A DNA stretch of 64,000 nt from Escherichia coli (GCF_024502345.1 NZ_JALDNN010000003.1); one strand, 5' to 3'; counted from the stretch's first letter, positions 817 to 34,380 are shown. The notes: generated by a model not told the origin, from the sequence alone. Made by a program: numbers and translations.

Positions 817-886
817 TTAACATTACCCATCCGGGGATTACATCCCTGATGGGTGTAATCCCATTTTTTATTTAAGTGAGGATTAC

Positions 887-1822: not shown

Positions 1823-1899
1823 TACTTATTATCAACTTATCTAATCCCTGAGGGAATTCTTCCCTTGGAGAGGATTCCCTCTTAACCGAGGGCTACAAA

Positions 1900-2820
1900 A
1901 TGAAAGCGATTTATAAAATAATTGAAGCGATGCTGGTGAAAATGGGCTTTGAAGGTGCCGTGATCCAAAGTGTCAATCTGGAAACGGGTGTGATTCAGAG
2001 TCTAGTTGTTAAGGCTGATATTCCTGTCCGGACTTTAATGCCGCATTTAAGGCGATATCTGCGCGATTGTGAGCCTTTATGGGGACATGACGTGGATTAC
2101 CACCCTATAGCACAATATTGCTCAGGAGCTGCGTTGTTGAAGGCTGGGCCGGTCACTCTTGAAACCTTTCGGTTTGAGGTTTCAGTGTCAACTGCTCACC
2201 TGCGGCTTGTGGATATTGAGCCGGACTGTCTAAATGAGGGTGTGAACCGTGAAAAACTGGAGTATGTATATTACCGCTCCAGCAATGCAGACAAGGATCT
2301 AATACTTGGTATGGTTGAAAAAGGACATAATTTTATCAATCATCTGCATGAACTTTTACGCTCGCGCTTATCAACGGCTTTGCCGCTGATTTTCGCAGTT
2401 ACAGAAAAGATTGCGGAGAGTTCAGTTCCACAAGTAGTCACCAGCTTTTTCAGTGTTGACCATCAAATCAATGCCCAGATAGTAGTCGAACCTGTACCCG
2501 TTTCAGTCGCAGACCAGATAATTTCTGCTGACTGGAATGTGTGTAGTGTTTCAGGAGCGGATAAGTTCCTGAACCATGTTAATCGTTATCTGTCGGGTAG
2601 GGTGATGAAGCGGCGTATTTACGCTGTTATAGAAGCTTGCGACGGTGGATCTTTATCCCTCAATGCGAACTTAGGTTGCTTTACATCACCTCTTCTCGTA
2701 ACTGAGTATAAAATGGTTCAGTCACACTCTTCATCGCTTTATCGAAAGGCTATAAATAACTCGCTTAAGCAAGTTAATTCGTATGCTCCAGAGCATTCAG
2801 ATGACCTGCTTTCTATGTAA
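1900..2820 (+). CDS. hypothetical protein, array member (306 aa)
   Basis: ATG preceded by SD-like GAGGG and hairpin module; N-terminal similarity to 887..1822. Confidence 0.55.
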   Translation: MKAIYKIIEAMLVKMGFEGAVIQSVNLETGVIQSLVVKADIPVRTLMPHLRRYLRDCEPLWGHDVDYHPIAQYCSGAALLKAGPVTLETFRFEVSVSTAHLRLVDIEPDCLNEGVNREKLEYVYYRSSNADKDLILGMVEKGHNFINHLHELLRSRLSTALPLIFAVTEKIAESSVPQVVTSFFSVDHQINAQIVVEPVPVSVADQIISADWNVCSVSGADKFLNHVNRYLSGRVMKRRIYAVIEACDGGSLSLNANLGCFTSPLLVTEYKMVQSHSSSLYRKAINNSLKQVNSYAPEHSDDLLSM

Positions 2821-2892
2821 TTAATTTTACCCATTGGGGAAGCGTATTCCCCGTGGGGGTTGCTTCCTTTCTTCATTAAAGAGGAAGTGAAT

Positions 2893-3828
2893 ATGTTTAA
2901 TGAAAGTGATGATAAAAACTTTGTTAGTGCAATGCTTAAATGTCAACTTGGCCTGAATATAAGCCAAGAGGATATTACAATATATGACAAAGAAAATCAT
3001 TTTGAACAACTTTCTTTTAAAGCAAATGTGGCGCTTGATGATTTGTTATTTTATCTGGATTTATATATATCAGAATTGATTAAGCATAATGCGCCGTATT
3101 CTGAAACTGAAGTCCTTCGGACTAAAATCAAATACTTTCTTAAAGTATATGAAAAGTCTGGTTTTCAGAACATAAGAATTCGCGGTTATCATAACGCGCA
3201 CAGCACTATAGATATTGTCGATATCGCATCATTAATATTGGCGGGGTCTGTACCGGAGTCTGAACATGATTCAATAGATCCTGTTTTAAGAAAGGAAATC
3301 TATCAAAATCGCATGAGTGTTGAGGGTAAAGTTCTCATTGCCCGTTTTGCACTTAAGCAATTTTTCCATTCTGATTTTGGTGATTTCATCTTAGAGTTCG
3401 AGAAAAGTATCTCCAAGTGTTTGAATACTTCTCTCCAGATAATTAAATCTGTAAAGAACTCATTTAACCGTTTAGGTCAATATCAATATCAGCGTCGTGT
3501 AAAAGATGACCTGACTTTGCATCTTGATTTGAATACAGATGAATACCCGGCCTGTATGCCAGACCTTTACATCGGTTTCAAGGAGTCTGAAGGGACGACG
3601 GGAGTGTATCGCGATGATGAAAAAATCATTCGTCTTTATACTGGCGTTAGTTCCGGAAAGGATGTTCCTGTAATGATGACCGTTCGATTCACTGGCTGTG
3701 ACGGGAGTGTTTTGTCTGAATCATCGCACGGTACTTTCTGTTCCGTGGGACCTACCGGCCGAGTGCAGGTTTGTGACAGAGTTGCGTTGGTCCAAGAAGC
3801 GGTCGAAGAGTTACGGGATGTTGTTTAA
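2893..3828 (+). CDS. hypothetical protein, array member (311 aa)
   Basis: ATG at 2893 preceded by GAGGAAG SD (track ORF starts at upstream TTG 2860); shares blocks with 4005..4961 (KVLIARFALKQFFHSDF vs QVLIARFALEKFWDTHF; YQYQRRVKDDLTLHLDL vs YSYTRRITDELSLHISL). Confidence 0.55.
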   Translation: MFNESDDKNFVSAMLKCQLGLNISQEDITIYDKENHFEQLSFKANVALDDLLFYLDLYISELIKHNAPYSETEVLRTKIKYFLKVYEKSGFQNIRIRGYHNAHSTIDIVDIASLILAGSVPESEHDSIDPVLRKEIYQNRMSVEGKVLIARFALKQFFHSDFGDFILEFEKSISKCLNTSLQIIKSVKNSFNRLGQYQYQRRVKDDLTLHLDLNTDEYPACMPDLYIGFKESEGTTGVYRDDEKIIRLYTGVSSGKDVPVMMTVRFTGCDGSVLSESSHGTFCSVGPTGRVQVCDRVALVQEAVEELRDVV

Positions 3829-4004
3829 CCCTTGTTTTTTACCTCTTCATTCCAAAAAGTAACTTTGTTCTACCAAATGACCGCGCTACCTATTCTGATC
3901 AACTTGCAGGAAAGAATGGCGCAGTAGTACATATTTTTAATCCACCCACTGGGGAAGTCGCTCCCCTGTGGGGCACTTCCTTTAATAATCCTGAGGAAGT
4001 GAAG

Positions 4005-4961
4005 ATGACTAATTCTACTGATAACCAGAACTACGTTCGTGCAGTACTGGCAGGCATTGGTATTGATTTTGATGAAACAGAGATGTTTATCAGTGTCTCT
4101 CATTGCCAGAGCGACGAAGTTTCGTTTACATGCAGTATATCAGCCAGTGAGTTAAGAGAATCTGCGGGGCATTATGTGGATACTCTTAATGATACCCAAC
4201 TGGCTGGCCTGGATGCGGATGCACTCAAGAAGCGACTGGTTTACTTCCTTGAGGTTTTCGACCTGGTTTCCGGTCAATATCTGGATATTTCCGGTAAACA
4301 TTTCGCGACCAGCCGCTTTGAATACGACGATGTCTGTAGTGAGATCCTGAGTAACTCTGCGGACAGCGCCCAGCCAGGTGGCTATGATCGTGAAGAGTAC
4401 AAAAGACTGATGGAAGTTGATGGTCAGGTTTTAATCGCCCGATTTGCACTGGAAAAATTCTGGGATACGCATTTTATTGGGCTTATCAACTATGTATCAG
4501 ATGAAATAACATCCGGGCTTTATGAGGCTTATCGCACGTTCAGTGATATAAACATGGCCGGTTATACATTTAGTGAGTATTCATATACGCGTCGTATTAC
4601 CGACGAACTTAGTTTGCATATTTCACTTAAAGAGGACGATTTCGAAGAGCAATTAACCGATTGTTATATGGATGAAACAACGCTGCCGTCTGGCAAGGTG
4701 GTTTTACGCCGTAATAATGAATCAATTATTGGGATTTATGAAGGATATGCTTCAAAATCTTACTTTCCTATGGTTGCTAATGTTAGAGTCCTTGATACAG
4801 ATGGTGAAGTTGTTACTGAACTTTACCAAGGGGTGAATGTATCAGAATTAGCTGGTGGTCGGATTAAAATCCATGACCGTCAGGAATTAATTTCTGAGGT
4901 GTTCGCTAACTTACGTGAATTCATCCCAGCATCAGAGGATAAAATCTTTGATGCGGCATGA
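4005..4961 (+). CDS. hypothetical protein, array member (318 aa), paralog of 2893..3828
   Basis: ATG at 4005 preceded by GAGGAAG SD and hairpin module (track ORF starts at upstream GTG 3999); clear paralogy to preceding ORF. Confidence 0.55.
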   Translation: MTNSTDNQNYVRAVLAGIGIDFDETEMFISVSHCQSDEVSFTCSISASELRESAGHYVDTLNDTQLAGLDADALKKRLVYFLEVFDLVSGQYLDISGKHFATSRFEYDDVCSEILSNSADSAQPGGYDREEYKRLMEVDGQVLIARFALEKFWDTHFIGLINYVSDEITSGLYEAYRTFSDINMAGYTFSEYSYTRRITDELSLHISLKEDDFEEQLTDCYMDETTLPSGKVVLRRNNESIIGIYEGYASKSYFPMVANVRVLDTDGEVVTELYQGVNVSELAGGRIKIHDRQELISEVFANLREFIPASEDKIFDAA

Positions 4962-10375: not shown

Positions 10376-10521
10376 TCCTCATTAGCGCCCCGAAGGAGTA
10401 TATAGTAAAAACAGTGTCTATTCGCGTGTGAGTGAGTGACAGGGCTTTACATATAACGTCAGCGGCTTTCATTTCAAACGTACATACTGTGTATAATGGT
10501 ATGTACGTTTTTTATTTGCGC

Positions 10522-10739
10522 CGAGTCCTTCGGCGGTACCCGCCCGTGAACTCTGCCGCAAGCATGCCATTTCCGATGCCACGTTTTACACCTGGCGTAA
10601 GAAGTATGGCGGTATGGAGGTGCCTGAAGTTAAGCGCCTGAAGTCGCTTGAGGAAGAGAACGCCAGACTCAAGAAGCTGCTTGCCGAAGCCATGCTGGAT
10701 AAAGAGGCGCTTCAGGTGGCTCTTGGGCGAAAGTACTGA
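10522..10739 (+). pseudogene. IS3-family orfA remnant (5'-truncated, no start codon)
   Basis: In-frame translation matches the IS3-family OrfA C-terminus (FYTWRKKYGGM motif, leucine-zipper-like region); an upstream stop lies immediately before the first in-frame codon. Confidence 0.5.
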
Positions 10740-10762
10740 CGACAGACCAGAAGCGGGAAGCC

Positions 10763-11596
10763 GTGATGTTGATGTGTGATGCGACCGGTCTGTCGCAACG
10801 TCGTGCCTGCAGGCTTACAGGTTTATCCCTGTCGACCTGCCGCTATGAGGCTCACCGTCCGGCTGCTGATGCGCATTTATCAGGGCGCATCACTGAGCTG
10901 GCACTGGAGCGCAGGCGTTTTGGCTACCGTCGTATTTGGCAGTTGCTGCGCCGTGAAGGGCTTCATGTTAATCATAAGCGCGTGTACCGGCTTTATCACC
11001 TCAGTGGCCTGAGCGTAAAACGCAGAAGACGTCGTAAAGGGCTGGCAACAGAACGTCTGCCGCTGCTCCGTCCGGCGGCGCCCAATCTGACCTGGTCGAT
11101 GGATTTCGTCATGGACGCACTTTCCACCGGTCGCAGGATCAAGTGTCTTACCTGCGTCGATGATTTCACAAAGGAATGCCTGACGGTCACTGTTGCCTTT
11201 GGGATTTCAGGCGTTCAGGTCACGCGTATTCTGGACAGCATTGCACTGTTTCGAGGCTATCCGGCGACGATAAGAACTGACCAGGGGCCGGAGTTCACTT
11301 GCCGTGCACTGGATCAATGGGCCTTTGAGCATGGTGTTGAGTTGCGCTTAATCCAGCCGGGCAAGCCAACGCAGAACGGATTTATTGAGAGCTTTAACGG
11401 ACGATTTCGCGATGAATGTTTGAATGAGCACTGGTTCAGCGATATCGTTCATGCCAGGAAAATTATTAATGACTGGCGGCAGGATTATAACGAATGCCGC
11501 CCGCACTCCACGCTGAATTATCAGACACCGTCTGAATTTGCAGCGGGCTGGAGAAAGGGTCATTCTGAGAATGAAGATTCCGACGTTACTAACTGA
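10763..11596 (+). CDS. IS3-family transposase OrfB (DDE integrase-like catalytic domain)
   Basis: 277-aa ORF with motifs TDQGPEFT and [16 protein letters not shown] typical of IS3-family OrfB; frame is -1 relative to the orfA remnant. Confidence 0.7.
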
Positions 11597-11786
11597 GTGT
11601 TGTATCTAATCGTGGGGGCAGGTCACTTGGTCGGTGCCATGACGCGACTATTTTCAGGTGATTGCTGATACAACTCACAACAGGCTTGAGCAATGTCGCT
11701 CTTTGCCGTTTCGTGGAAGTGAATAGCCCCCGTACTTAGTTTTTCAGGCACGATACCTTGATTAATGAGCTTGGAGTATTCAGGAA

Positions 11787-12606
11787 GGCACTGTTGCAAA
11801 GTTAGCGATGAGGCAGCCTTTTGTCTTATTCAAAGGCCTTACATTTCAAAAACTCTGCTTACCAGGCGCATTTCGCCCAGGGGATCACCATAATAAAATG
11901 CTGAGGCCTGGCCTTTGCGTAGTGCACGCATCACCTCAATACCTTTGATGGTGGCGTAAGCCGTCTTCATGGATTTAAATCCCAGCGTGGCGTCGATTAT
12001 CCGTTTCAGTTTGCCATGATCGCATTCAATCACGTTGTTCCGGTACTTAATCTGTCGGTGTTCAACGTCAGACGGGCACCGGCCTTCGCGTTTGAGCAGA
12101 ACAAGCGCGCGACCATAGGCGGGCGCTTTATCCGTGTTGATGAATCGCGGGATCTGCCACTTCTTCACGTTGTTGAGGATTTTACCCAGAAACCGGTATG
12201 CAGCTTTGCTGTTACGACGGGAGGAGAGATAAAAATCGACAGTGCGGCCCCGGCTGTCGACGGCCCGGTACAGATACGCCCAGCGGCCATTGACCTTCAC
12301 GTAGGTTTCATCCATGTGCCACGGGCAAAGATCGGAAGGGTTACGCCAGTACCAGCGCAGCCGTTTTTCCATTTCAGGCGCATAACGCTGAACCCAGCGG
12401 TAAATCGTGGAGTGATCGACATTCACTCCGCGTTCAGCCTGCATCTCCTGCAGCTCACGGTAACTGATGCCGTATTTGCAGTACCAGCGTACGGCCCACA
12501 GAATGATGTCACGCTGAAAATGCCGGCCTTTGAATGGGTTCATGTGCAGCTCCATCAGCAAAAGGGGATGATAAGTTTATCACCACCGACTATTTGCAAC
12601 AGTGCC
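11787..12606 (-). mobile_element. IS26-family insertion sequence, variant allele, inverted relative to the other two copies
   Basis: 820 bp bounded by 14-bp inverted repeats GGCACTGTTGCAAA / TTTGCAACAGTGCC; Tnp differs from the other two copies at three residues (EMQAERG vs EMLAERG; ALVLLK vs ALALLK; IIDATLG vs IIGATLG). Confidence 0.95.
11839..12543 (-). CDS. tnpA: IS26-family transposase Tnp26 (234 aa)
   Basis: MNPFKGRHFQRDIILWAVRWYCKYGISYRELQEM... matches the IS26/IS6-family transposase recalled from memory; start taken at the MNPFKG methionine. Confidence 0.95.
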   Translation of the reverse strand: MNPFKGRHFQRDIILWAVRWYCKYGISYRELQEMQAERGVNVDHSTIYRWVQRYAPEMEKRLRWYWRNPSDLCPWHMDETYVKVNGRWAYLYRAVDSRGRTVDFYLSSRRNSKAAYRFLGKILNNVKKWQIPRFINTDKAPAYGRALVLLKREGRCPSDVEHRQIKYRNNVIECDHGKLKRIIDATLGFKSMKTAYATIKGIEVMRALRKGQASAFYYGDPLGEMRLVSRVFEM

Positions 12607-12807
12607 GTTAATTCTGCTGGCGGTAGTCGTTTGGTTTACCCTGCCAGAGAGGAAAATACGGCAATTGGGCAAACAGCGTGCCACACCTCACTGATTAGGG
12701 TGTGGTTAACACTTCATTAATTAAACAGTCATTACTCTTACTTAACTGTGTGATATACCTATTTAGGGTTTGAAACATTAGAGTTTGAAATAGGTAAGGT
12801 CTGAGCA

Positions 12808-13953
12808 ATGACTGAGCAAACGTCCCCCGCACAACTTGATCTCGATAGCGCGGCTCAGCCCCCCAGAGTTTATATCCGGGGGGACTGGGTGTTGGCGCAT
12901 TACTGCGTTTTGGAGCCGCGCGTTGCGCAATTGCGCGCTAATATGCCCAGTGGGGGGGTATTTGATCTCAACCAACTGGGGGCGTTAGATACCGCCGGTG
13001 CAACGTTGTTAGCTCTGCTTCTGGGTGAGGACCGTGTAGCAAATTTACGCGAACTTGCGCCTAAATTGCCAGAAGAGCGGAGGATATTACTTGAAACGGT
13101 AAGCCATGTATTGCCTGACTTAACCCCTGAGTTGTCTGAAAAACCCACACGGTTTTGGCTTGAGATGCTGGCTAATACCGGCCGTTCGGTAGATAACTTA
13201 TGGCAAGATATTAAGTCACTATTGGGCTTTATTGGTCTGGCGCTGGAAACCTTGCTGGGAACACTTTTTCGCCCCTCCCGCTGGCGCATTACCTCATTAA
13301 TTGCCAATATTCAACAGATTGGCCTCAATGCTGTGCCGATCATTATGTTGCTCACCTTTTTGGTGGGGGCAGTTATCGCCTTTCTCGGTGCAACCGTACT
13401 CACTACTTTCGGCGCGGGCATTTTTACCGTCGATTTGGTGGTATTTTCTTTTCTACGTGAATTTGCGGTACTGCTTACCGCGATCCTGATGGCAGGGCGA
13501 ACAGCCAGTGCTTTTACCGCTGAAATTGGCTTGATGAAAGCCAATGAAGAGATTGATGCTATCCAAACACTGGGCTTGAATCCGGTCGAACTGTTGGTGC
13601 TACCGCGCGTCTTGGCACTATTGATCTCTCTGCCGATGCTAACCTTTATTGGCATGGTTTGCGGTATTTTCGGTGGCATGGTGGTGTGTGCCTTAACACT
13701 GGATATCTCTCCCACTATGTTTTTGTCGATTATGCAAAACAGTAATGGGTTGCAGCATTTTCTGGTGGGAATAAGTAAAGCCCCTATTTTTGCTTTCCTG
13801 ATTGCTATTATTGGCTGTCTGGAGGGGTTCAAAGTAACCGGTAGTGCTGAATCAGTCGGGGTTCATACCACCACCAGTGTGGTGCATTCGATCTTTGTGG
13901 TGATTTTGCTTGATGCCGTGGCAGCGCTATTTTTCATGGAAATGGGGTGGTGA
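12808..13953 (+). CDS. ABC transporter permease, MlaE family, with N-terminal STAS-like domain
   Basis: 381 aa; soluble N-terminal ~110 aa followed by multi-helix permease region (AVPIIMLLTFLVGAVIAFLGATVLTTFGAG...) typical of MlaE/YrbE permeases. Confidence 0.8.
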   Translation: MTEQTSPAQLDLDSAAQPPRVYIRGDWVLAHYCVLEPRVAQLRANMPSGGVFDLNQLGALDTAGATLLALLLGEDRVANLRELAPKLPEERRILLETVSHVLPDLTPELSEKPTRFWLEMLANTGRSVDNLWQDIKSLLGFIGLALETLLGTLFRPSRWRITSLIANIQQIGLNAVPIIMLLTFLVGAVIAFLGATVLTTFGAGIFTVDLVVFSFLREFAVLLTAILMAGRTASAFTAEIGLMKANEEIDAIQTLGLNPVELLVLPRVLALLISLPMLTFIGMVCGIFGGMVVCALTLDISPTMFLSIMQNSNGLQHFLVGISKAPIFAFLIAIIGCLEGFKVTGSAESVGVHTTTSVVHSIFVVILLDAVAALFFMEMGW

Positions 13954-13958
13954 GCCAA

Positions 13959-14750
13959 ATGACGCAAGATGCAATCATTCAAATTCGCGATCTGGTTAAC
14001 TGCTTTGGCGTACAGTGCGTGCATCAAGGGTTGAATCTTGATGTTAAGCGCGGCGAAGTTCTTGGCGTGGTTGGTGGCTCGGGTACCGGTAAATCTGTTC
14101 TGTTACGCAGTATTGTTGGGTTACGTCGTCCGACTGACGGGAAAATTCATGTTTTTGGCAAGGATTTAATGGCACTGTCAGGTCAATCCCGCGCCATGGT
14201 CGAGCGCCGATTCGGCGTATTATTTCAACGAGGCGCACTGTTCAGTTCTCTAACCGTGACCGAGAACGTGGCATTACCATTAATAGAAAACGCCGGATTA
14301 CCCCGGTCTGAGGCTGAGCGATTGGCTCAGGTTAAACTGGCACTGGCTGGGCTACCGCCGGGCACTGGCAGTAAGTATCCAGCATCTCTGTCGGGTGGTA
14401 TGGTCAAGCGTGTTGCGCTAGCCCGTGCCTTAGCACTGGACCCGGATATTCTGTTTCTTGATGAACCGACTGCGGGTCTTGATCCCATTGGTGCGGCGGC
14501 GTTTGACAGTTTGATCCGCACCCTGCGGGATGCCCTCAATCTAACGGTATTCTTGGTGACCCACGATCTGGATACGCTGTATACACTGTGTGATCGTGTG
14601 GCGGTGCTTTCGCAGAAAAAAGTGCTGGTGGTTGATACTCTGGATAAAGTTGCAGCGACTGATGATGGCTGGATTCAGGCGTATTTTCATGGCCCACGTG
14701 GCCGGGCTGCTTATCAGGCAGCGGCAATTAACAGTGGAGAGAGGTTGTAA
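13959..14750 (+). CDS. ABC transporter ATP-binding protein (MlaF-like)
   Basis: Walker A GGSGTGKS, ABC signature LSGGMVKRVALARAL, Walker B ILFLDEPTAGLD; ATG at 13959 follows the permease stop. Confidence 0.85.
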   Translation: MTQDAIIQIRDLVNCFGVQCVHQGLNLDVKRGEVLGVVGGSGTGKSVLLRSIVGLRRPTDGKIHVFGKDLMALSGQSRAMVERRFGVLFQRGALFSSLTVTENVALPLIENAGLPRSEAERLAQVKLALAGLPPGTGSKYPASLSGGMVKRVALARALALDPDILFLDEPTAGLDPIGAAAFDSLIRTLRDALNLTVFLVTHDLDTLYTLCDRVAVLSQKKVLVVDTLDKVAATDDGWIQAYFHGPRGRAAYQAAAINSGERL

Positions 14751-14751
14751 T

Positions 14752-15690
14752 ATGGAAACCCGTGCTCATCATGTCGTTATTGGTTTGTTCACTCTTATTG
14801 TGGTGAGTGCCGCGCTGCTGTTTTGCCTATGGCTGACAAATTCCGGTTCTGATCGCCAGTTCAGATTGTACGATATCGTTTTCAATGAGCCTGTGAGTGG
14901 CCTGTCACAGGGTAGCACCGTTCAGTACAGCGGGATTCGAGTCGGTGAGGTGACGCAATTACGCCTGGACCGAGACAATCCGAATAAGGTTTGGGCACGT
15001 ATTCGCGTTTCTGCATCTACTCCGATACGCGAAGATACCCAAGCTCGTCTCACCGTCGCGGGTATTACCGGCACCTCAAATATTCAATTCAGCAGTGGCA
15101 GCCAGACCAGCCCGTTGCTGGAGGGCAAAGATGACGAGGTTCCTATCATTATTGCTACCCCTTCGCCGATGAGCCAGTTACTGGCTAACGGTGAGAATTT
15201 CATGACCAATGCGAATGAAGTGTTGGTGCGTTTGAACCAGTTGCTGGCACCGGATAACCAGCAGCGCCTAGTAACGACACTGGATAATCTCGCGCTGGTC
15301 ACCCAAACTGTGGCTGATCAACGTGGTGATCTCCGTACCCTGTTGCAGCAGTTGGCGCAGGCCAGTAAACAGGCTAATGAGACACTGACTCAAACCAATC
15401 GCCTGCTGCGTAATGCTAACGGCTTAATGGATGGGCAGGGGAAACAACTGGTCAGTGATGCCGCCAAAACCATGGCATCGTTGCAAAATACCAGTACCAT
15501 CCTCAATAAATTGGTGAGTGAAAATAAAACCTCACTCAATAACGGGATGCAAGGGATGAATGAGCTGGGGCCGGCAGTAGATGAGCTGCGCAGAACATTA
15601 GCGACATTACGTGCCGCCGTTTCTCGTTTGGAAGAAAACCCAGCGGCCTTGTTGCGCGGCCGTGAAAGAACACAGGAGTTTACGCCTTAA
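14752..15690 (+). CDS. MCE-domain (MlaD/PqiB-like) periplasmic substrate-binding protein
   Basis: ATG at 14752 with GGAGAGAGG upstream; N-terminal single TM helix (HHVVIGLFTLIVVSAALLFCLWL) followed by an MCE-like domain and a Q/L-rich coiled-coil tail. Confidence 0.75.
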   Translation: METRAHHVVIGLFTLIVVSAALLFCLWLTNSGSDRQFRLYDIVFNEPVSGLSQGSTVQYSGIRVGEVTQLRLDRDNPNKVWARIRVSASTPIREDTQARLTVAGITGTSNIQFSSGSQTSPLLEGKDDEVPIIIATPSPMSQLLANGENFMTNANEVLVRLNQLLAPDNQQRLVTTLDNLALVTQTVADQRGDLRTLLQQLAQASKQANETLTQTNRLLRNANGLMDGQGKQLVSDAAKTMASLQNTSTILNKLVSENKTSLNNGMQGMNELGPAVDELRRTLATLRAAVSRLEENPAALLRGRERTQEFTP

Positions 15691-16331
15691 TGCTCTCTTT
15701 TAATGTGATGCGCTATGCAGGCCGCCGCGTGTGGCTATTGATGATATCCGGGGGGGCGATACTGCTCTCTGCCTGCACCATTTTACCTTCGGCCCCTGTA
15801 TCACAAGTTTATCTTCTGCCGGTGCCACCTGCAGTCAGTGTGCCACACGCGCAGACAGTAAACTGGTCATTACGGGTTTCACAACCGGCGACGAACCAGT
15901 TTCTTAATAGCTCACGCATAGCGGTGCAGCCTCAGGGCCAGGAGATTGCGGTTTATAAAAACTCCCGTTGGAGTGATTCGGCGCCGATTTTGGTGCGCAA
16001 TCGTCTTATTCAGGCGTTCCGTAGCGATGGGCGAATCCGTGCAGTCAGTAGCGACGATGATAGCTTGCAGGCTGATGTGGAGTTGAGTGGTGATCTGTCC
16101 GCGTTCCAAGGGGTATACCATGTTGGTAGCAGCGAAGTGCTGATCCGTTTTGATGCTCGGCTGGTAAGAATTTCAGATCGTAGGATTATTGCGACTCGCC
16201 AGTTTGACATTCGCCAACCGATAAAAGGTAACGAGATGAACGAGGTGGTTCAGGCCTTTGGCCTGGCCAGTGACCAGTTAGCCACTCAAGTGCTCAACTG
16301 GACGATGCAGCAATCCCCTGCGCAGGGTTGA
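15690..16331 (+). CDS. ABC-transport auxiliary lipoprotein (lipobox LLSAC)
   Basis: Start overlaps the preceding stop (TAATG coupling); signal peptide with lipobox LLSAC; position and size fit the lipoprotein partner of MCE systems. Confidence 0.6.
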   Translation: MLSFNVMRYAGRRVWLLMISGGAILLSACTILPSAPVSQVYLLPVPPAVSVPHAQTVNWSLRVSQPATNQFLNSSRIAVQPQGQEIAVYKNSRWSDSAPILVRNRLIQAFRSDGRIRAVSSDDDSLQADVELSGDLSAFQGVYHVGSSEVLIRFDARLVRISDRRIIATRQFDIRQPIKGNEMNEVVQAFGLASDQLATQVLNWTMQQSPAQG

Positions 16332-16349
16332 TATCTAAACCAGCACCGG

Positions 16350-16395
16350 TTGGTTTTATCTGAGGCGAGTTGGCAGTAGCTAACTCGCCTTTTTT
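16350..16395 (+). terminator. putative intrinsic terminator of the Mla/MCE-like operon
   Basis: Hairpin GGCGAGTT...AACTCGCC followed by TTTTTT shortly after the stop at 16331; coordinates approximate. Confidence 0.5.
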
Positions 16396-16678
16396 ATCGT
16401 CTAGTTTAATGATTCAAGGCGAATAATTGCGTCTAAGGGGAAAATATTCTCTTTATTGTTTTGTGATTAGTATCTCATTGAGTAAGGGATTAATGGTGTT
16501 TGAGTTATCTATTTCATTGTTTTTAATATGTTTTTATTTAAATTGTTCTGTGGTTATCTTTTTTGTTAAAGAGAACAATATTCTCCAAGCATTAAAAACA
16601 ACAAGAAAATAGGAAAAGTATTTCTCCCCGTAAAACCCTAAGATAAAAATAATCCAAATCACTGATTAATTACTTCAA

Positions 16679-17956
16679 ATGCAAAAAATAACACATCAAC
16701 AATTACTCGATTGGTTGAAAAAGGAAGTGAAACTTTCATTAGGTTGTACTGAGCCTATTGCTATTGCGTATGCTGCCGCAGTGGCTGCTAAATATCTCAA
16801 CGCACCGATATTAAAAATAACGGGGAATATATCGGAGAATCTGTATAAAAATGCGATGGGAGTCACTATTCCGGGAACAAGCTATTGCGGAGTCACTCTT
16901 GCGGCGGCAATAGGGGCTATTGGTGGTAACGCGGATGCCGATTTAGAAGTATTAAAAGATATTACTGCGACACAAATTACCGAAGCCTATATATTTAATG
17001 AATCAGGTAACGTGTGTCTAAACGCAGTAGATGCTACGGATTTTATTTTTATCGATATTACGCTATATAGTCTTAGTGATCAGTGCCGGGTAGTGATTCA
17101 AGGTAGCCATACTAATGTCACTGAAGTTTATATTAATAATATAAAGCAAATATTAGTCCGAGACCTAATTGCCGCCAATGATAGTGGGGTACTACCCGAA
17201 TTTTCCCTTAACGACGCATTTAAATTTGTAACCGATGTCGCCGCTAAAGACATCATGTTTATGCTGAAAAGTGCTGAGATTAATACCGCGCTTTCTGACG
17301 AGGGGCAAAGGAAGAACTATGGTTTGAACGTGAGTGGCGCGTTGTCGCAAGCCAGAAAAAATGGCTTTATCAGCACTGACTTACTGAGTCAAATGTTGAT
17401 CAACACCACTGCGGCATCAGATGCCCGTATGGGCGGCGCACCCTTACCCGCGATGTCAAATTATGGCTCTGGTAATCAGGGGATTACCGTGACAATGCCG
17501 GTAGTGACACTTGCCCGACATCTTAATACAGATGATGAAACACTGGCCCGGGCATTAGCGTTGGCCCATCTAGCCGCAATCTCAATTCATATGCGTTATA
17601 CCCGATTGTCTGCATTGTGTGCGGCGTCAACGGCAGCAATGGGGGCGGCGGCAGGTATGAGTTGGTTATTGACCCAAGATTTTCAAACTATCTCCTACGC
17701 GGTCAGTAATATGATCAGTGATATTAGTGGCATTATTTGCGATGGTGCATCAAATAGTTGTGCCATGAAAGTGTCTACCGCTACCGCCTGTGCATTTAAG
17801 TCGGTGTTGATGGCGCAACAAAATAGTGTTGCAGGGGAGCGTGATGGCATTGTTTCCTGCGATGTTGAAGGTTCTATCAATAATTTATGTAAATTAGTGT
17901 TATCGCCAATGAGGCAAACAGATAAAGAAATTATCAGTATAATGACACGTAAATAA
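16679..17956 (+). CDS. L-cysteine desulfidase CyuA/YhaM-family (serine dehydratase-like) protein
   Basis: 425 aa; N-terminal blocks LSLGCTEPIAIAYAAAVAA and GVTIPGTSYCG match the YhaM/CyuA family recalled from memory; AT-rich gene after a long AT-rich leader. Confidence 0.7.
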   Translation: MQKITHQQLLDWLKKEVKLSLGCTEPIAIAYAAAVAAKYLNAPILKITGNISENLYKNAMGVTIPGTSYCGVTLAAAIGAIGGNADADLEVLKDITATQITEAYIFNESGNVCLNAVDATDFIFIDITLYSLSDQCRVVIQGSHTNVTEVYINNIKQILVRDLIAANDSGVLPEFSLNDAFKFVTDVAAKDIMFMLKSAEINTALSDEGQRKNYGLNVSGALSQARKNGFISTDLLSQMLINTTAASDARMGGAPLPAMSNYGSGNQGITVTMPVVTLARHLNTDDETLARALALAHLAAISIHMRYTRLSALCAASTAAMGAAAGMSWLLTQDFQTISYAVSNMISDISGIICDGASNSCAMKVSTATACAFKSVLMAQQNSVAGERDGIVSCDVEGSINNLCKLVLSPMRQTDKEIISIMTRK

Positions 17957-18037
17957 ATATTACGGTTTAACCGCGTGGCCTAACGTCATTATTAATAATG
18001 ATCGGCGGGCTATCGTTAAAATTTAAAGGGACAAATA

Positions 18038-18557
18038 ATGAGCAAATCAAAATCGATCGCGACTCTGGTTATCCATGCCGGAGATCAAGTTGACCGGGGC
18101 AATAATGCTATTTTTCCACCGATTACTACCGCCAGTTCCTTCATTCAGCCAAATTTAGGCGAAGAAGGGGAGTTTTGTTATTCCCGTTGCAGTAACCCGA
18201 CAAGATATGCATATGAAACCGCCTTGGCTGAGTTGGAAGGAGGTATCTATGCTACGGCAACCGCTTCCGGTATGGCAGCAACTGCACTTATATTGGAATT
18301 GCTACCTAAGGATTCCCATGTATTAGTAATGAAAGGGGTCTATGGCGGTACTTATCGGTTGTTTGAACGTCTGCGTAAACAAACTTCAGGTACGACATTC
18401 AGTTATGTCGATCTTAATGATCTGGCGTCAGTAGAGCGCCATATTCAAGAGAATACAGGTCTAATCTGGATCGAAACGCCCACTAACCCACTGTTGGAAT
18501 TAGTTGATATTGAAGCAGTATGCCAGGTTGCCAAAAGCAGGGGCATAATGAGCTGCG
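18038..18557 (+). pseudogene. PLP-dependent cystathionine beta-lyase/gamma-synthase family gene, 3'-truncated by IS1
   Basis: N-terminal ~173 aa of a MetB/MetC-family enzyme (LVIHAGDQ..., SRCSNPTRYAYETALAELEGG, GLIWIETPTNPLL); the reading frame runs directly into the IS1 left end. Confidence 0.7.
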
Positions 18558-18612
18558 GGTGATGCTGCCAACTTACTGATTTAGTGTATGATGGTGTTTT
18601 TGAGGTGCTCCA

Positions 18613-18888
18613 GTGGCTTCTGTTTCTATCAGCTGTCCCTCCTGTTCAGCTACTGACGGGGTGGTGCGTAACGGCAAAAGCACCGCCGGACATCAGCGCT
18701 ATCTCTGCTCTCACTGCCGTAAAACATGGCAACTGCAGTTCACTTACACCGCTTCTCAACCCGGTACGCACCAGAAAATCATTGATATGGCCATGAATGG
18801 CGTTGGATGCCGGGCAACCGCCCGCATTATGGGCGTTGGCCTCAACACGATTTTCCGCCATTTAAAAAACTCAGGCCGCAGTCGGTAA
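18613..18888 (+). CDS. insA: IS1 InsA
   Basis: [43 protein letters not shown]... matches IS1 InsA. Confidence 0.9.
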
Positions 18889-19310
18889 CCTCGCGCATAC
18901 AGCCGGGCAGTGACGTCATCGTCTGCGCGGAAATGGACGAACAGTGGGGATACGTCGGGGCTAAATCGCGCCAGCGCTGGCTGTTTTACGCGTATGACAG
19001 GCTCCGGAAGACGGTTGTGGCGCACGTATTCGGTGAACGCACTCTGGCCACACTGGAGCGTCTTCTGAGCCTGCTGTCGGCCTTTGAGGTCGTGGTATGG
19101 ATGACGGATGGCTGGCCGCTGTATGAATCCCGCCTGAAGGGAAAGCTGCACGTTATCAGCAAGCGTTACACTCAGCGCATTGAGCGACATAACCTGAATC
19201 TGAGACAACATCTGGCAAGGCTGGGACGGAAGTCACTGTCGTTCTCAAAATCGGTGGAGCTGCATGACAAGGTCATCGGGCATTATCTGAACATAAAACA
19301 CTATCATTAA
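18807..19310 (+). CDS. insB: IS1 InsB reading frame (expressed as InsAB' by -1 frameshift)
   Basis: Frame encodes ...[28 protein letters not shown]... characteristic of IS1 InsB. Confidence 0.85.
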
Positions 19311-19412
19311 GTTGGAGTCATTACCAGAGTTTATTGTCAAATAAAAAGGCAGATTTCTCTGCCTTAATACACAATATACATAGTTCAAGGTACTATATAT
19401 AACGCAGGGGCG

Positions 19413-20603
19413 CTACTCATCCAGCGCCTCACGCATGAACTTCGTCATCGCTTTCTTACCTGCGTCAATGTTACGGATATAGCGGGAAACCATTTCTGCA
19501 TTGCTCCAGTTACCCATCTCCATGATCTGCAAGTGCGTGTACCCGGCATCAGCAAGTTCGATGGCGCCGCCAACCCTAACGCTGTGACCAGTCCAGCATC
19601 GGGTGCCCGCTTCCTGCGGATGAAGTTCATCCCAAAACGCTTCAAAGGCCCGGAGCAATGTGTTTTTACTGAGCATACCCTCATCATCGACAATAATGGG
19701 CTTTCCATTTTTCCCGATCGGGGGGCGGGTAGGTCGGTAAGGCATATTATGATTTTTCAGCAGCGTATTGATCTCATTCCCTTTGCTCCGGAGACCCCAT
19801 CCAGGGGGCATATATCCGCTGTCCTGAAAGTTAACTGCCTGGAAGAGATAATCCTTCGGATGGCTTTGCTGGTCCCTTTTGACCATACCCATCAGCCTGA
19901 TTAGGGTGGCAGTGAGATGAGGGGTCAGATGATAGGTAAGCAGGGTACTGACAGTGGATTTTGTCCGGTACACCGTCAGGGTAAAACTGCCTGTCTGTTC
20001 ATTCAGCACAAGGTCCTGCATCCGAATGCGCCGAAGTTCTGCTGAGCGCAACAGTGTTTCAAAACCTGTCCAGATAATGCAAAGGTCTCGGAGTTTGCGC
20101 ACCGACTGTGTCGTACCGTGGGCTTTAATCAAAGCTTTCAGGTCGGAGACTAGGAATGGCGTTGCCTGACGAGTCACTTTTTGCTCTCGGGCTTCAGCTT
20201 GTTCGAGGCTTGCAAGAATACTCTTGACCTTGGATGTGATGATCCCAGGGCGATCGAGTGCTTTCCTATGGATACTGTTCAGCGCGTGCAGACAACCTTT
20301 AATGCTGCTGTGTGACAGCGAGCCCTGAAGATAGTCCAGATAGGACAACAACGGGGGTTGAGTCACCGGGAGAGAACTGGCAGGCCAGGCTTCGTTTCCC
20401 TCCTTTCCTGCATTAGCTTGGTACCACTCGTTCCAGGAACGCAGCCATTGAAGGTAAGTTTTAGCCGTGTGGTATTTCATATGAGAAAAGTAAAAAATGA
20501 GCTCCTTAAGGTCATTATTGGGCACCTCAAACGTGACCAGTTCCTGATGGAGGTCTGAGTCTTCAAACTGTCTGGTTACTGGCTTGCTGTTCATGGTGGT
20601 CAC
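19413..20603 (-). CDS. tyrosine site-specific recombinase (phage-type integrase)
   Basis: 396 aa; C-terminal catalytic region HSVRVGGAIELADAGYTHLQIMEMGNWSNAEMVSRYIRN fits the R..HxxR..Y tyrosine-recombinase pattern. Confidence 0.85.
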   Translation of the reverse strand: MTTMNSKPVTRQFEDSDLHQELVTFEVPNNDLKELIFYFSHMKYHTAKTYLQWLRSWNEWYQANAGKEGNEAWPASSLPVTQPPLLSYLDYLQGSLSHSSIKGCLHALNSIHRKALDRPGIITSKVKSILASLEQAEAREQKVTRQATPFLVSDLKALIKAHGTTQSVRKLRDLCIIWTGFETLLRSAELRRIRMQDLVLNEQTGSFTLTVYRTKSTVSTLLTYHLTPHLTATLIRLMGMVKRDQQSHPKDYLFQAVNFQDSGYMPPGWGLRSKGNEINTLLKNHNMPYRPTRPPIGKNGKPIIVDDEGMLSKNTLLRAFEAFWDELHPQEAGTRCWTGHSVRVGGAIELADAGYTHLQIMEMGNWSNAEMVSRYIRNIDAGKKAMTKFMREALDE

Positions 20604-20808
20604 CTGAATACACTGTTTTTATTTACAGCTATTTTAGCACTGAGGTATCCACTTATGAACAGGTTCATAGCAACTAAAAAAGAGAGAGCGAGTACAACAA
20701 CGATCCGGAGATAAACATCAAATATTTGTGAAAAAAATTAGATTCTAGGGACAAAACGACATAAGATTGGGAAACCGTACTTTCGCGGGAAATAAATTAA
20801 GGTTGACC

Positions 20809-21021
20809 ATGTCCGAAACTAAGCAGGCGTATTTAATGAAATTTCGTAAGTGCTCTTCTTTCGACACACTGGAAAAAGTATTCGAACGACTCTGTGAAAA
20901 AAATGCAGGTATAGCATCACTGGAAATTTCCGGGGCATATGACCATCGAAAAGCTGAACTGACAATGAAGAAACTCTACGATAAAGTACCCGCAAGCGTA
21001 TGGACACTGGTCCGTCAGTAA
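20809..21021 (+). CDS. hypothetical small protein (70 aa)
   Basis: ATG at 20809 preceded by AAGG; sits in the integrase-adjacent accessory cluster. Confidence 0.3.
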   Translation: MSETKQAYLMKFRKCSSFDTLEKVFERLCEKNAGIASLEISGAYDHRKAELTMKKLYDKVPASVWTLVRQ

Positions 21022-26527: not shown

Positions 26528-27355
26528 ATGTCTGGAACATTCAAGGGGCTGACCCAGGCCCAGATCGATAGAAGGCTCAAGGACGGGCGTGGTCAAGGCC
26601 AGGGATCAGACTACAAGCCGTTCATCTACACAAGGGACGTGTCCTCGCTGGGTCGCTCCCACCGCCTGCCTGGCAGCAAGACCCGGCGTTTACACCATCT
26701 TCTATCCGATCTTGAACTGGCCATCTTCCTGACCTTGGATCGGTCTCCCCATGTCACCGATATCCGTGAACAGTTTCCGATGCGGGTCGAAGATACGGTG
26801 CGCATCGCCGAGGAGCTTGGCCTGCCCCACGGTTGTTACAAGGGTACCCCGCAGGTACTGACCAGCGACTTTCTGGTGGATTTCGAAGATCCTCAGCGCC
26901 CGAGCATCGCGATTCAGGCCAAGTACAGTACCGACCTGCAGAAGCCTGAAGTTATCGAGAGGCTTGAGCTTGAAAGGCGCTACTGGCAGGAAAAAGGTAT
27001 TCCCTGGGTCATCGTTACGGAGCGCGAGGTATCCAAGGTGGCATTTGCCAATATCCAATGGCTCTATCCTGCCCATGCTGAAGGCGACATCGCTCAGGAC
27101 GATCTCGCCCATTACCAGCAGCTGTTTCTGCTCGAGTTTCAGCGTCACCCAGACCGGAAGCTGACCGCTATTGCCCAAGGACTGGATACCTCCGGCCAGC
27201 TGGAGGCCGGTCAGGCGCTCTATTGGCTACGCCAGTTGCTGGCCCGGCACTGTTTCCTTTTCGATCTTGACACTCCTTACCGGGAGCTGAAGCCGAAAGA
27301 CCTGGTTGCCAACTCTCATCAAATGCATCAGGAGCTGAGCAGTGTTGCCCGTTAA
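26528..27355 (+). CDS. tnsA: Tn7-like transposase endonuclease subunit TnsA
   Basis: Blocks RRLKDGRGQGQG, HHLLSDLELA, IREQFP, LELERRYWQEKGIPW match Tn7 TnsA recalled from memory. Confidence 0.9.
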   Translation: MSGTFKGLTQAQIDRRLKDGRGQGQGSDYKPFIYTRDVSSLGRSHRLPGSKTRRLHHLLSDLELAIFLTLDRSPHVTDIREQFPMRVEDTVRIAEELGLPHGCYKGTPQVLTSDFLVDFEDPQRPSIAIQAKYSTDLQKPEVIERLELERRYWQEKGIPWVIVTEREVSKVAFANIQWLYPAHAEGDIAQDDLAHYQQLFLLEFQRHPDRKLTAIAQGLDTSGQLEAGQALYWLRQLLARHCFLFDLDTPYRELKPKDLVANSHQMHQELSSVAR

Positions 27356-29429
27356 TCAGGTGTTCCGGATGGGGGAACTGCGAAAGCGCCTGCTTTGGTC
27401 CGGTACCGAGCAGGCAATCTGGATCGATATCGATTCGGACACGGCGTTGCCCGAACCGATATCGATTGTAGAGCTGGAGCGTCTGATCATGGAGCGGGAG
27501 CTGGAGAGCATTGCCGATCCCTTCGAGGAAACAGTCCTACGGGAGGTTGAGGAAGGTTCCCTTGATCAGCAGAAGCGTGATGAAGCTTGGGGAATGCTGG
27601 CGGATTTTGTGCACAACCCCCAGCTTTTCGTGCGGCGCCCCAGAGGGCTCATTGTCAGAGGCATCATGGAGCGCCATGGTGTCACCAATCAGACGGTGTA
27701 TAGGTTACTGAGGCGCTACTGGCAGCGAGGCATGTGCAGGAATGCCCTCTTGCCGGACTATGTCAACTCGGGCGCCCGTGGCAAGCGCAGAAAGCCGAAC
27801 CAGGCCAAGCTGGGCAGGCCCAGAGTGGTGATGGAGGGGAAAGGGAGCAATGTCACGCCGGACATCGAGCGCATTTTTCGCCGGGTCATCGAGGAACGTT
27901 TGCTCAAGGAAAAACATCCGTCCATTCCTGATGCCTACGCCGCCGGGCTGAATCTGCTCCGTGCTGTTCTGACGGAGCTGCCGACCTCCGAACTGCCTAC
28001 ATTGGGGCAGTTCCGTTACTTCTATGGGCGCGAATATCACTTCACCGACACCTTGCCATGCAGGGTGTCCGCAGTGGATTTTGCCAAGGACTTCCGACCG
28101 CTCAGCAGTACATCGACGACCGAGGCACTGGGGCCAGGATACCGCTACCAGATCGATGCCACCATCGCCGATATCTATCTGGTTTCAGAACATGATCGCA
28201 GCCTTATCGTCGGCAGGCCTGTCGTTTACATGGTGATCGACGTGTTCAGCCGCATGGTCGTTGGTATGTACGTCGGATTCGAGGGACCTTCCTGGGTCAG
28301 TGCCATGGTGGCATTGGCCAACACGGTCGCCGACAAGGTTGAGTATTGCCGCCAGTATAGCGTGGAGATCGATGCCAGCGACTGGCCGGTCAAAGGCTTG
28401 CCGGATGTGGTGCTGGCCGATAAGGGCGAACTGAATGGCACCAAGGTGGAAGCATTTTCCCAAGCCTTCGGCGTTCGCATCGAGAATGCACCGGCCAGGC
28501 GAGGAGATGCCAAGGGGATCGTCGAGCGTTATTTCCGGACGGTGCAGGAGCGTTTCAAGCCCTATGCCAGCGGTGTGGTCGAGGACACCACCAGCCGGAA
28601 GCGGGGTGGCCACGACTACAGACTTGATGCCAGTCTGACCTTGCCCGAGTTCACCCAGATCATCATTGCCGGCATCCTCTACCACAACAACTTTCATACC
28701 TTGAGCAAATACGACAGAACCTCTGGTATGCCGGGCGATCTGCCAGCCATCCCGGTCATGCTGTGGAACTGGGGCTTGGCCAACTTGACCGGCCGGTTAC
28801 GTACTGCGCCCGAGGAGCTGGTGCGGATAAATCTCTTGCCCCATGAGTCGGCCACGGTTTCGGAGCTGGGAATCAGACTGTTCGGCTGCTTCTACACCTG
28901 CCAGGAAGCAATCAGGGAGGGTTGGTTTCACCGAGGCCAGGGGCGCCGGCCGACAGGGGTAACGGTCGCATACGATCCGCGTAGCGCCGACCACATCTAC
29001 CTGCGGCCGTCCAATAGTCTCAAGGACTACTGGGTTTGCGATCTTGCCGACCGCAGTCGACGCTTCAGGGGGATGACCTTCTGGGATGTCTGGCTGCTGT
29101 CCAGAGAGGAACGGCGTAGCGATACCAACGCGGCGGCGGAAGCTTTGGTAGAGAGAGGCAATCTTCTGAAGCAGATCGAGTCCATCGTTGCCCAGGCAGA
29201 GGATGCCAGTCCGCTCAAAACGGGTATGACCACGAAGGATCTGGGAACCCAGATCCGCGAGAACAAGCAGCAGGAAAAGCGCCAGGAACGCCAGAAAACA
29301 GCATTCAAACCGGATAAAGCACAGCAGGAAAAGCCAGCCGAGGTGATCCCACTGCGGGGCGAGAAGCAGGAAGATTATGCCTTCCCAGATCTCAGTGACC
29401 TGATATTCAAGGAGGAAGAGGATGACTGA
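27342..29429 (+). CDS. tnsB: Tn7-like transposase TnsB (DDE, Mu-like)
   Basis: 695 aa; blocks TVYRLLRRYWQRG, ALLPDYVNSGARG, YQIDATIADIYLV, VVYMVIDVFSRMVVGMYVGFEGPSW match Tn7 TnsB. Confidence 0.9.
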   Translation: MLPVNQVFRMGELRKRLLWSGTEQAIWIDIDSDTALPEPISIVELERLIMERELESIADPFEETVLREVEEGSLDQQKRDEAWGMLADFVHNPQLFVRRPRGLIVRGIMERHGVTNQTVYRLLRRYWQRGMCRNALLPDYVNSGARGKRRKPNQAKLGRPRVVMEGKGSNVTPDIERIFRRVIEERLLKEKHPSIPDAYAAGLNLLRAVLTELPTSELPTLGQFRYFYGREYHFTDTLPCRVSAVDFAKDFRPLSSTSTTEALGPGYRYQIDATIADIYLVSEHDRSLIVGRPVVYMVIDVFSRMVVGMYVGFEGPSWVSAMVALANTVADKVEYCRQYSVEIDASDWPVKGLPDVVLADKGELNGTKVEAFSQAFGVRIENAPARRGDAKGIVERYFRTVQERFKPYASGVVEDTTSRKRGGHDYRLDASLTLPEFTQIIIAGILYHNNFHTLSKYDRTSGMPGDLPAIPVMLWNWGLANLTGRLRTAPEELVRINLLPHESATVSELGIRLFGCFYTCQEAIREGWFHRGQGRRPTGVTVAYDPRSADHIYLRPSNSLKDYWVCDLADRSRRFRGMTFWDVWLLSREERRSDTNAAAEALVERGNLLKQIESIVAQAEDASPLKTGMTTKDLGTQIRENKQQEKRQERQKTAFKPDKAQQEKPAEVIPLRGEKQEDYAFPDLSDLIFKEEEDD

Positions 29430-31032: not shown

Positions 31033-31033
31033 C

Positions 31034-32528: not shown

Positions 32529-32536
<8 letters not shown>
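31034..32536 (+). CDS. tnsD: Tn7-like target-selection protein TnsD (TniQ family)
   Basis: 500 aa; blocks HTLFPLYAPF, FRKHRKGFSALQH, YAWLYRHDRHWL, YAESVGEYQIRRL parallel Tn7 TnsD (HTLFPLYAPF, FRKHRKAFSYLQH, YAWLYRHDRDWL, YSESVEDYQIRRI). Confidence 0.85.

Positions 32537-34380
<1,844 letters not shown>

Follow-up and report, generated by a model that had tools for sequence, protein, structure and literature searches.

Introduction

The closest described relatives of the operon studied here are two envelope-spanning MCE transporters, MpcEFDA of Brucella abortus and PA3211-PA3214 of Pseudomonas aeruginosa. The Brucella system has been described as "Mla-Pqi chimeric" (Lannoy et al., EMBO J 2025; PMC12436622): MpcE combines MlaE with a STAS domain at its N terminus that is homologous to MlaB, MpcD is an extended MlaD bearing a coiled-coil needle, and MpcA is of the PqiC type; all four copurify as one complex, and mpc mutants show deoxycholate sensitivity, poor survival in macrophages, and a changed lipid composition of their vesicles. 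In P. aeruginosa, PA3214 forms an octameric ring and the PA3213 hexamer forms a needle of ~170 Å, with the C-terminal peptide K306-P312 (KTKEFTP) of PA3213 bound in a groove of PA3214 (10.64898/2026.05.09.724024; PDB 13HQ, 13HR, and 13HS). A single stable complex, E2F2D6A8, is supported by pull-down in Brucella (PMC12436622) and, in part, by cryo-electron microscopy (cryo-EM) of the periplasmic and outer membrane part in P. aeruginosa (10.64898/2026.05.09.724024). Here, we describe a four-gene operon on the plus strand (12808-16331) of a 64,000-nucleotide stretch of Escherichia coli DNA (GCF_024502345.1, NZ_JALDNN010000003.1; the whole stretch is called the window below). It very likely encodes an envelope-spanning transporter of the Mpc/PA3211-PA3214 type, an Mla-Pqi hybrid captured from a Yersinia-like chromosome. 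The architecture has already been named and partly solved structurally, and the operon is a further case of this described type.

Results

A PDB sequence search, in which the MCE protein and the lipoprotein matched entry 13HR, was decisive for the assignment to the Mpc/PA3211-PA3214 type. The MCE protein (312 amino acids [aa]; 14752-15690) is 60% identical to PA3213 over 312 of 312 residues without a gap (PDB 13HR; E = 9e-117), and the lipoprotein (213 aa; 15690-16331) is 54% identical to PA3214 (PDB 13HR, 13HQ, and 13HS; E = 9e-65) and also matches XCC0632 (PDB 2IQI; E = 2e-21). These two proteins carry the comparison, as PA3211 and PA3212 themselves are not in the PDB. Gene order is the same, the MCE proteins are equal in length, and the lipoprotein-binding tail xTxEFTP is conserved, reading RTQEFTP here and KTKEFTP in PA3213. 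Permease orthologs from other Pseudomonas are 62 to 66% identical over the full length, N-terminal domain included; the PA3211-PA3214 preprint contains no description of a STAS domain. Unlike PA3211-PA3214, the window copy is plasmid-borne, lies between IS26 and IS1, and belongs to a Yersinia-like lineage.

The remaining features of the operon agree with this assignment. The MCE protein has an N-terminal transmembrane helix, a single MCE domain (PF02470, MlaD), and a tail of ~190 aa that is predicted to form a long helical needle and that matches the C terminus of PqiB (NF008070, positions 407-538; E = 3e-11). The last gene encodes a PqiC-like outer membrane lipoprotein (PF03886, ABC-type transport auxiliary lipoprotein; E = 3e-20) with the lipobox LSAC, Cys29, and Thr at position +2, so that a lipoprotein of this type and an MCE tail matching it occur together, as in the Mpc type. 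The MlaF-like ATP-binding cassette (ABC) ATPase is encoded next to the permease at 13959-14750 (263 aa from the ATG at 13959, or 267 aa if the GTG at 13947 is used); it matches PF00005 (E = 5e-31), its Walker A, Q-loop, LSGG signature, Walker B/Glu, and H-loop motifs are all intact, and it is predicted from them to be the catalytically competent cognate ATPase. The permease stop codon lies 5 nucleotides (nt) before the ATPase ATG (a 7-nt overlap if the GTG is the start), 1 nt separates the ATPase gene from the MCE gene, and the latter shares 1 nt with the lipoprotein gene, spacings that are consistent with translational coupling across all four genes. Downstream lies a strong intrinsic terminator (16362-16391 or, more widely delimited, 16362-16397; plus strand) with a 13-bp GC-rich stem followed by a T run; its hairpin folds at -22.5 kcal/mol (z = -5.2), and none of 200 shuffles (0/200) folded equally well.

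Before these comparisons, a sequence-only reading had placed at 12808-16395 a four-gene MCE-type ABC system, with a soluble STAS-like domain in the first ~110 residues of the permease, an ATPase, an MCE-domain protein with a long coiled-coil tail, a lipoprotein, overlapping or coupled starts, and a clean intrinsic terminator. All of this was borne out: the open reading frames (ORFs) are present and intact, and the domain annotation that it had suggested as a check matched the MlaE, ABC ATPase, MCE, and auxiliary lipoprotein families. The family-level labels in RefSeq are likewise already correct for all four genes, and the RefSeq MCE protein also has 312 aa. The label "Mla/MCE-type" held in part, in that homology to the MlaE, MlaF, and MlaD families is clear; the system is not simply Mla, however, but an Mla-Pqi hybrid as in Brucella MpcEFDA and PA3211-PA3214.

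The permease (381 aa; 12808-13953, plus strand) joins an MlaE-family transmembrane domain (residues ~138-377) to an N-terminal extension. Residues 165-374 match PF02405 (MlaE; E = 1e-69), the protein scores 241 bits against TIGR00056 (MlaE family lipid ABC transporter permease; cutoff, 212), and ~135 additional residues lie ahead of the MlaE match. The N-terminal 141 residues gave no Pfam match even at E <= 10, and a STAS assignment therefore required a profile, a structure model, and homologs. Searched against the PDB, a 40-sequence profile of the N-terminal domain had STAS proteins as its top matches (TM1442, E = 0.003; MlaB, E = 0.1) and placed an invariant LDTAGA motif over VDTGGLA of MlaB, with T62 corresponding to T52 of MlaB. 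AlphaFold2 modeled residues 9-105 as a beta-beta-alpha-beta-alpha-alpha STAS fold with predicted local distance difference test (pLDDT) scores of about 90-96 (88 for the N-terminal domain), and the nearest structural neighbor of this model was MlaB. When the full-length permease was modeled with 63 sequences, the transmembrane part was poor (mean pLDDT, 64); only the N-terminal domain was used, after being remodeled alone. Pfam STAS_2 was matched by 35 of 40 homologous N-terminal domains (best E = 4e-8). Because profile, model, and homologs agree, the extension (residues ~9-105) is, as modeled, a divergent MlaB-like STAS domain that would face the cytoplasm, giving the MlaE-family permease with an N-terminal MlaB-like STAS domain that is typical of Mpc.

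With Brucella MpcEFDA, the operon shares composition and gene order, the STAS-MlaE fusion, a lipoprotein encoded last, and the lack of MlaC and MlaA; MpcD has 331 aa versus 312 aa for the window MCE protein. The Brucella system differs in being alphaproteobacterial and chromosomal, with reported conservation in Hyphomicrobiales, and its phenotypes are known for Brucella only. A permease from Methylocella (Hyphomicrobiales), considered as a stand-in for Mpc of that order, is 41% identical over residues 5-380; the third gene of its locus is annotated otherwise (a 374-aa "auxiliary lipoprotein"), and it backs homology of the permease only, not of the architecture.

E. coli MlaFEDB (PDB 6XBD, 6ZY2, and 7CGE) resembles the operon in the fold family of the permease (E = 1e-28), the ABC ATPase, and a single transmembrane-anchored MCE domain. 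MlaB is a separate protein there, whereas its counterpart is fused to the permease here; MlaD lacks a needle; and Mla has a soluble MlaC shuttle and MlaA-OmpC/F, not a continuous tunnel with a PqiC-like ring cap. The homology of the permease, ATPase, and MCE domain to MlaE, MlaF, and MlaD would also be expected of a second copy or a divergent allele of canonical Mla (mlaFEDCB), serving outer membrane asymmetry via the soluble MlaC shuttle. Only four genes lie between IS26 and the terminator, however, none of them MlaC-like, MlaA, or a separate MlaB, with the STAS domain being fused to the permease, and the scores fall below the equivalog cutoffs for MlaE (NF033619, 152 versus 315), MlaF (NF008809, 166 versus 441), and MlaD (TIGR04430, 53 versus 135). 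Moreover, the ~190-aa helical tail is not found in MlaD, and the partner lipoprotein is PqiC-like. We consider a canonical Mla system extremely improbable; judged by gene and domain content, it has already been refuted in terms of architecture.

E. coli PqiABC likewise has a C-terminal helical needle on its MCE protein and an octameric PqiC-type lipoprotein that binds the MCE C-terminal tail, but PqiB carries three MCE domains and its inner membrane partner, PqiA, is no ABC transporter, whereas the operon combines one MCE domain with an ATP-driven MlaFE-like engine. An assignment to PqiABC was rejected: PqiA is absent, a single MCE domain is present, and the match to PqiB is confined to the C-terminal 130 residues. 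Mycobacterial Mce1 (PDB 8FED) has YrbE/MlaE-like permeases, an ABC ATPase, and single-MCE proteins with long helical needles; unlike the operon, it is built on six different MCE proteins, arranged as a heterohexamer, with two distinct permeases, and has neither a PqiC-like lipoprotein nor a STAS fusion. Matches to Mce1 are distant (permease, E = 1e-17; MCE protein, E = 4e-5). Membership in the actinobacterial Mce1-4 group was also rejected, the operon having one MCE gene and one permease gene and scoring 57.5 against TIGR00996 (cutoff, 140.5).

The operon lies in an IncHI plasmid backbone, within a 9,012-bp insertion (10391-19402) that is missing at the same site of the IncHI plasmid pMAK1 and that contains an IS3-family remnant, IS26, the operon, two further genes, and IS1. 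The sequence from 12607 to 21000 is 100% identical to E. coli plasmid pECO-6357, and operon copies with at least 99% identity are present in 145 PLSDB plasmids from Klebsiella, Citrobacter, Escherichia, Enterobacter, Kluyvera, and Raoultella. Among 5,426 complete E. coli genomes, 41 carry it, always at >=99% identity (37 copies on plasmids and 7 on chromosomes). Its closest relatives on chromosomes are those of Yersinia, with 86 to 91% amino acid identity for the permease and nucleotide identity of up to 83%; Serratia and Budvicia (~75%), Raoultella terrigena (70%), and Pseudomonas (62 to 66%) follow. Of 80 genome loci from Yersinia, Serratia, Budvicia, Raoultella, and Pseudomonas, 77 have the four genes in colinear order, and the 200 bp upstream from the permease are homologous to Yersinia as well. 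In a search for the exact donor, the best match among GTDB species representatives was Yersinia pekkanenii (90% amino acid and 83% nucleotide identity). A 93%-identical metagenome-assembled genome labeled "Enterobacter sp." (P0013) was rejected as the donor, being the same plasmid fragment with a 71-bp gap. Some plasmid copies carry, beyond IS1, mltB and an amino acid permease fragment, both of which are upstream neighbors of the operon in Yersinia. Given this fragment and the Yersinia synteny up- and downstream, we conclude that a longer piece of a Yersinia-like chromosome was captured from an unsampled donor and then trimmed by IS26 and IS1. A literature search using the RefSeq protein accessions of the operon found nothing.

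The left boundary of the captured segment is an 820-bp IS26 on the minus strand (11787-12606; inverted repeats ggcactgttgcaaa and tttgcaacagtgcc; Pfam DDE_Tnp_IS240, E = 4e-48), 201 bp from the permease start. It is 159 bp nearer to the operon than in pECO-6357 (locus L001, 13929-14749), in AW1.7, and in most other copies, a position that fits IS26-mediated adjacent deletion. The shifted IS26 truncates an annotated ORF for an 83-aa hypothetical protein (WP_001515736.1). On its other side, IS26 cuts an IS3-family remnant (10391-11786; ORF 10763-11596 with rve, rve_3, and HTH_21) that forms the left end of the 9-kb insertion. Two ORFs of 240 aa with TTG starts, at 47614-48336 and 53788-54510, share their length and start codon with the IS26 transposase ORF (11839-12561); the window thus probably has three or more copies of IS26, a number sufficient for rearrangements mediated by this element. 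The native upstream region that remains between IS26 and the permease (12607-12807, plus strand) is homologous to that of Y. aldovae.

On the right, an SDH_alpha-family gene (PF03313; 425 aa; 16679-17956, plus strand) was captured with the operon as its native neighbor and is followed by a gene for a Cys/Met pyridoxal phosphate (PLP) enzyme (PF01053), which is cut short by IS1; the two span 16679-18562 on the plus strand. Both genes also lie downstream from the operon in Yersinia (77 to 81% nucleotide identity), immediately after it in Y. aldovae and separated from it by an additional OYE gene in other species. The right boundary is the IS1 itself (18558-19325, plus strand), which aligns to the IS1 of locus L001 and of pMAK1 and is annotated at the same position in RefSeq. 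In one Yersinia chromosome (locus L003, 13017-14296), the SDH_alpha gene is split into ORFs of 271 and 153 aa in different frames, suggesting a frameshift or pseudogene; the plasmid copy, unlike this one, is intact. GC content is ~35% at 16500-16999, which covers the intergenic region and the start of the SDH_alpha gene, and ~43 to 44% in the rest of the gene. The sequence-only reading had taken the system to be acquired rather than the core mlaFEDCB locus, a view upheld by the 9,012-bp insertion, the rarity of the operon in E. coli, and the scores below the MlaE, MlaF, and MlaD equivalog cutoffs; its placing of IS26 next to the operon was equally correct. It had also cited the AT-rich gene downstream, called cyuA-like, as a flank that speaks for acquisition. 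As evidence of a mosaic boundary, this gene did not hold, since the same genes follow the operon in Yersinia: the gene is a native Yersinia neighbor that came along with the operon and not a separate acquisition.

According to tblastn searches, the four-gene operon occurs in three separate plasmid lineages, that of the window included. A second lineage (~71% permease identity) is found on Klebsiella IncF plasmids (locus L091, NZ_CP084857.1, 31445-34971), and a third (~54% permease identity) on IncHI/IncP hybrid plasmids and P. aeruginosa megaplasmids (locus L090, NZ_CP026208.1, 185651-189339), where it adjoins genes for TolC-family, SMR, and DUF3313 lipoprotein products in a transfer region like those of IncP plasmids and integrative and conjugative elements. 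E. coli ECONIH5 carries the window lineage and the ~54% lineage on two different plasmids. In a closely related IncHI plasmid from beef trimmings (locus L086, NZ_CP061755.1, 245243-251094), an extra IS26-bounded segment with cupin, chlorite dismutase-family, and thermonuclease genes lies directly upstream from the operon. Elsewhere in the window, a Tn7-like module with TnsA, TnsB, TnsC, TnsD, and TnsE (ORFs at ~26528-34151) and then a heat resistance locus with clpK and ftsH occupy 25001-48388; this island, ~10 kb from the operon, is 99.5 to 100% identical to plasmids of E. coli, Klebsiella, and Salmonella Senftenberg. Five tandem ORFs of 268 to 322 aa in the IncHI backbone (10-4961), hypothetical in related plasmids, look like a paralogous array.

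Discussion

We infer how the transporter would assemble, in what stoichiometry, and with what substrate and direction of transport it would work if it is expressed in its plasmid hosts. By homology, two permeases and two ATPases would form an MlaFE-like ABC transporter in the inner membrane. The cytoplasmic STAS domain of each permease might dock on the ATPase and stabilize or regulate it, in the way that free MlaB acts on MlaF. A ring of six MCE proteins would sit on the periplasmic face, with the long C-terminal helices bundled into a hydrophobic needle or tunnel across the periplasm, and the ...TQEFTP tails would plug into grooves of an octameric PqiC-like lipoprotein ring at the outer membrane. 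Lipids, probably phospholipids, would then pass between the two membranes through this tunnel, driven by ATP hydrolysis.

Several points weigh against this interpretation. The function of the window copy and of its Yersinia orthologs is predicted from sequence, and the likeness to Brucella MpcEFDA is one of architecture and gene order. The inner membrane ABC part of PA3211-PA3214 was not resolved by cryo-EM (10.64898/2026.05.09.724024), and the N-terminal domain of the window permease itself stays below every Pfam STAS threshold. A scan for consensus sigma-70 promoters upstream from the permease found nothing, which leaves as the best promoter candidate a 45-nt block (~12736-12780) that is conserved across Yersinia, has been retained in the window, and contains an extended -10-like TGaTATACC; it is a putative promoter or operator. 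A hybrid promoter provided by IS26 was rejected, because the -35-like TTGCAA in its inverted repeat has no acceptable -10 at a distance of 16 to 18 bp by eye and the scan was empty there too. Furthermore, deletion of PA3211 in P. aeruginosa lacking mlaBCDEF had no SDS/EDTA or doxycycline phenotype (PMC10374164). Finally, the plasmid copies are 99 to 100% identical and thus offer no sign of purifying selection in the hosts that they now occupy; they are too alike for selection and hitchhiking to be told apart by sequence.

The lack of a phenotype of the PA3211 deletion, with no effect on outer membrane integrity, indicates that a role in barrier maintenance is not general and keeps alive the alternative that the same machine has another job, namely, importing an exogenous hydrophobic nutrient or xenobiotic (a sterol, fatty acid, hydrocarbon, or bile-derived compound) from the outer membrane, like actinobacterial Mce, rather than balancing the cell's own phospholipids. 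Such a job would suit the distant matches of the MCE protein to the Mtu_fam_mce model and to Mce1 chains and the TolC-family and SMR efflux genes next to a related plasmid lineage, and the preprint authors left transport across the outer membrane open (10.64898/2026.05.09.724024). Brucella mpc mutants, however, are sensitive to envelope stress and have a changed phospholipid content of their vesicles (PMC12436622), and neither in Yersinia nor on the plasmid is the operon linked to catabolic genes for a hydrophobic substrate. We regard import as quite improbable and favor phospholipid movement between the two membranes.

What the operon does for its plasmid hosts is a separate question. It might be inert cargo that was swept along by IS26 and IS1 beside selected genes and contributes nothing to the hosts. 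Identity of 99 to 100% across at least four genera speaks for a recent spread that selection has not yet tested; the flanks are rich in insertion sequences and rearranged, with truncated neighbors; one copy has ISKpn26 inserted under the match; and IS26 has already deleted 159 bp of upstream sequence in the window. Set against this are the four intact ORFs, the retention of the native upstream block and of the terminator, and the presence of at least three independent lineages on plasmids, a repeated capture that is easier to explain if the operon is useful. We consider inert hitchhiking somewhat unlikely. The occurrence of at least three unrelated lineages on plasmids, that of the window in IS26-rich regions near a heat resistance locus and another beside TolC-family/SMR efflux genes, also led us to a speculative proposal, which we hold to be unlikely as it stands, that plasmids repeatedly carry Mla-Pqi hybrid transporters as selected cargo, which would toughen the envelope of Enterobacteriaceae against bile salts, detergents, disinfectants, or heat.

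As an annotation, the operon is ordinary; what is modestly new is the mobility of an Mla-Pqi hybrid system on plasmids. A complete system resident in E. coli and 54 to 60% identical to solved P. aeruginosa proteins is also a convenient natural construct, which might help to clarify how an MlaFE-type ABC engine is regulated by a STAS domain fused to it. The MCE systems generally described in E. coli and close relatives are Mla, Pqi, and Let, and to our knowledge an ATP-driven needle-type system is not among them; the operon would therefore be a fourth, foreign lipid transport machine that conjugative plasmids have brought into clinical, wastewater, and food isolates. If expressed, it could alter outer membrane lipid balance and tolerance of bile or detergents. 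Should Mla-Pqi hybrids prove to be selected cargo, such a horizontally transferable trans-envelope lipid bridge would add a new class to the mobile tolerance determinants of isolates from hospitals, wastewater, and food.

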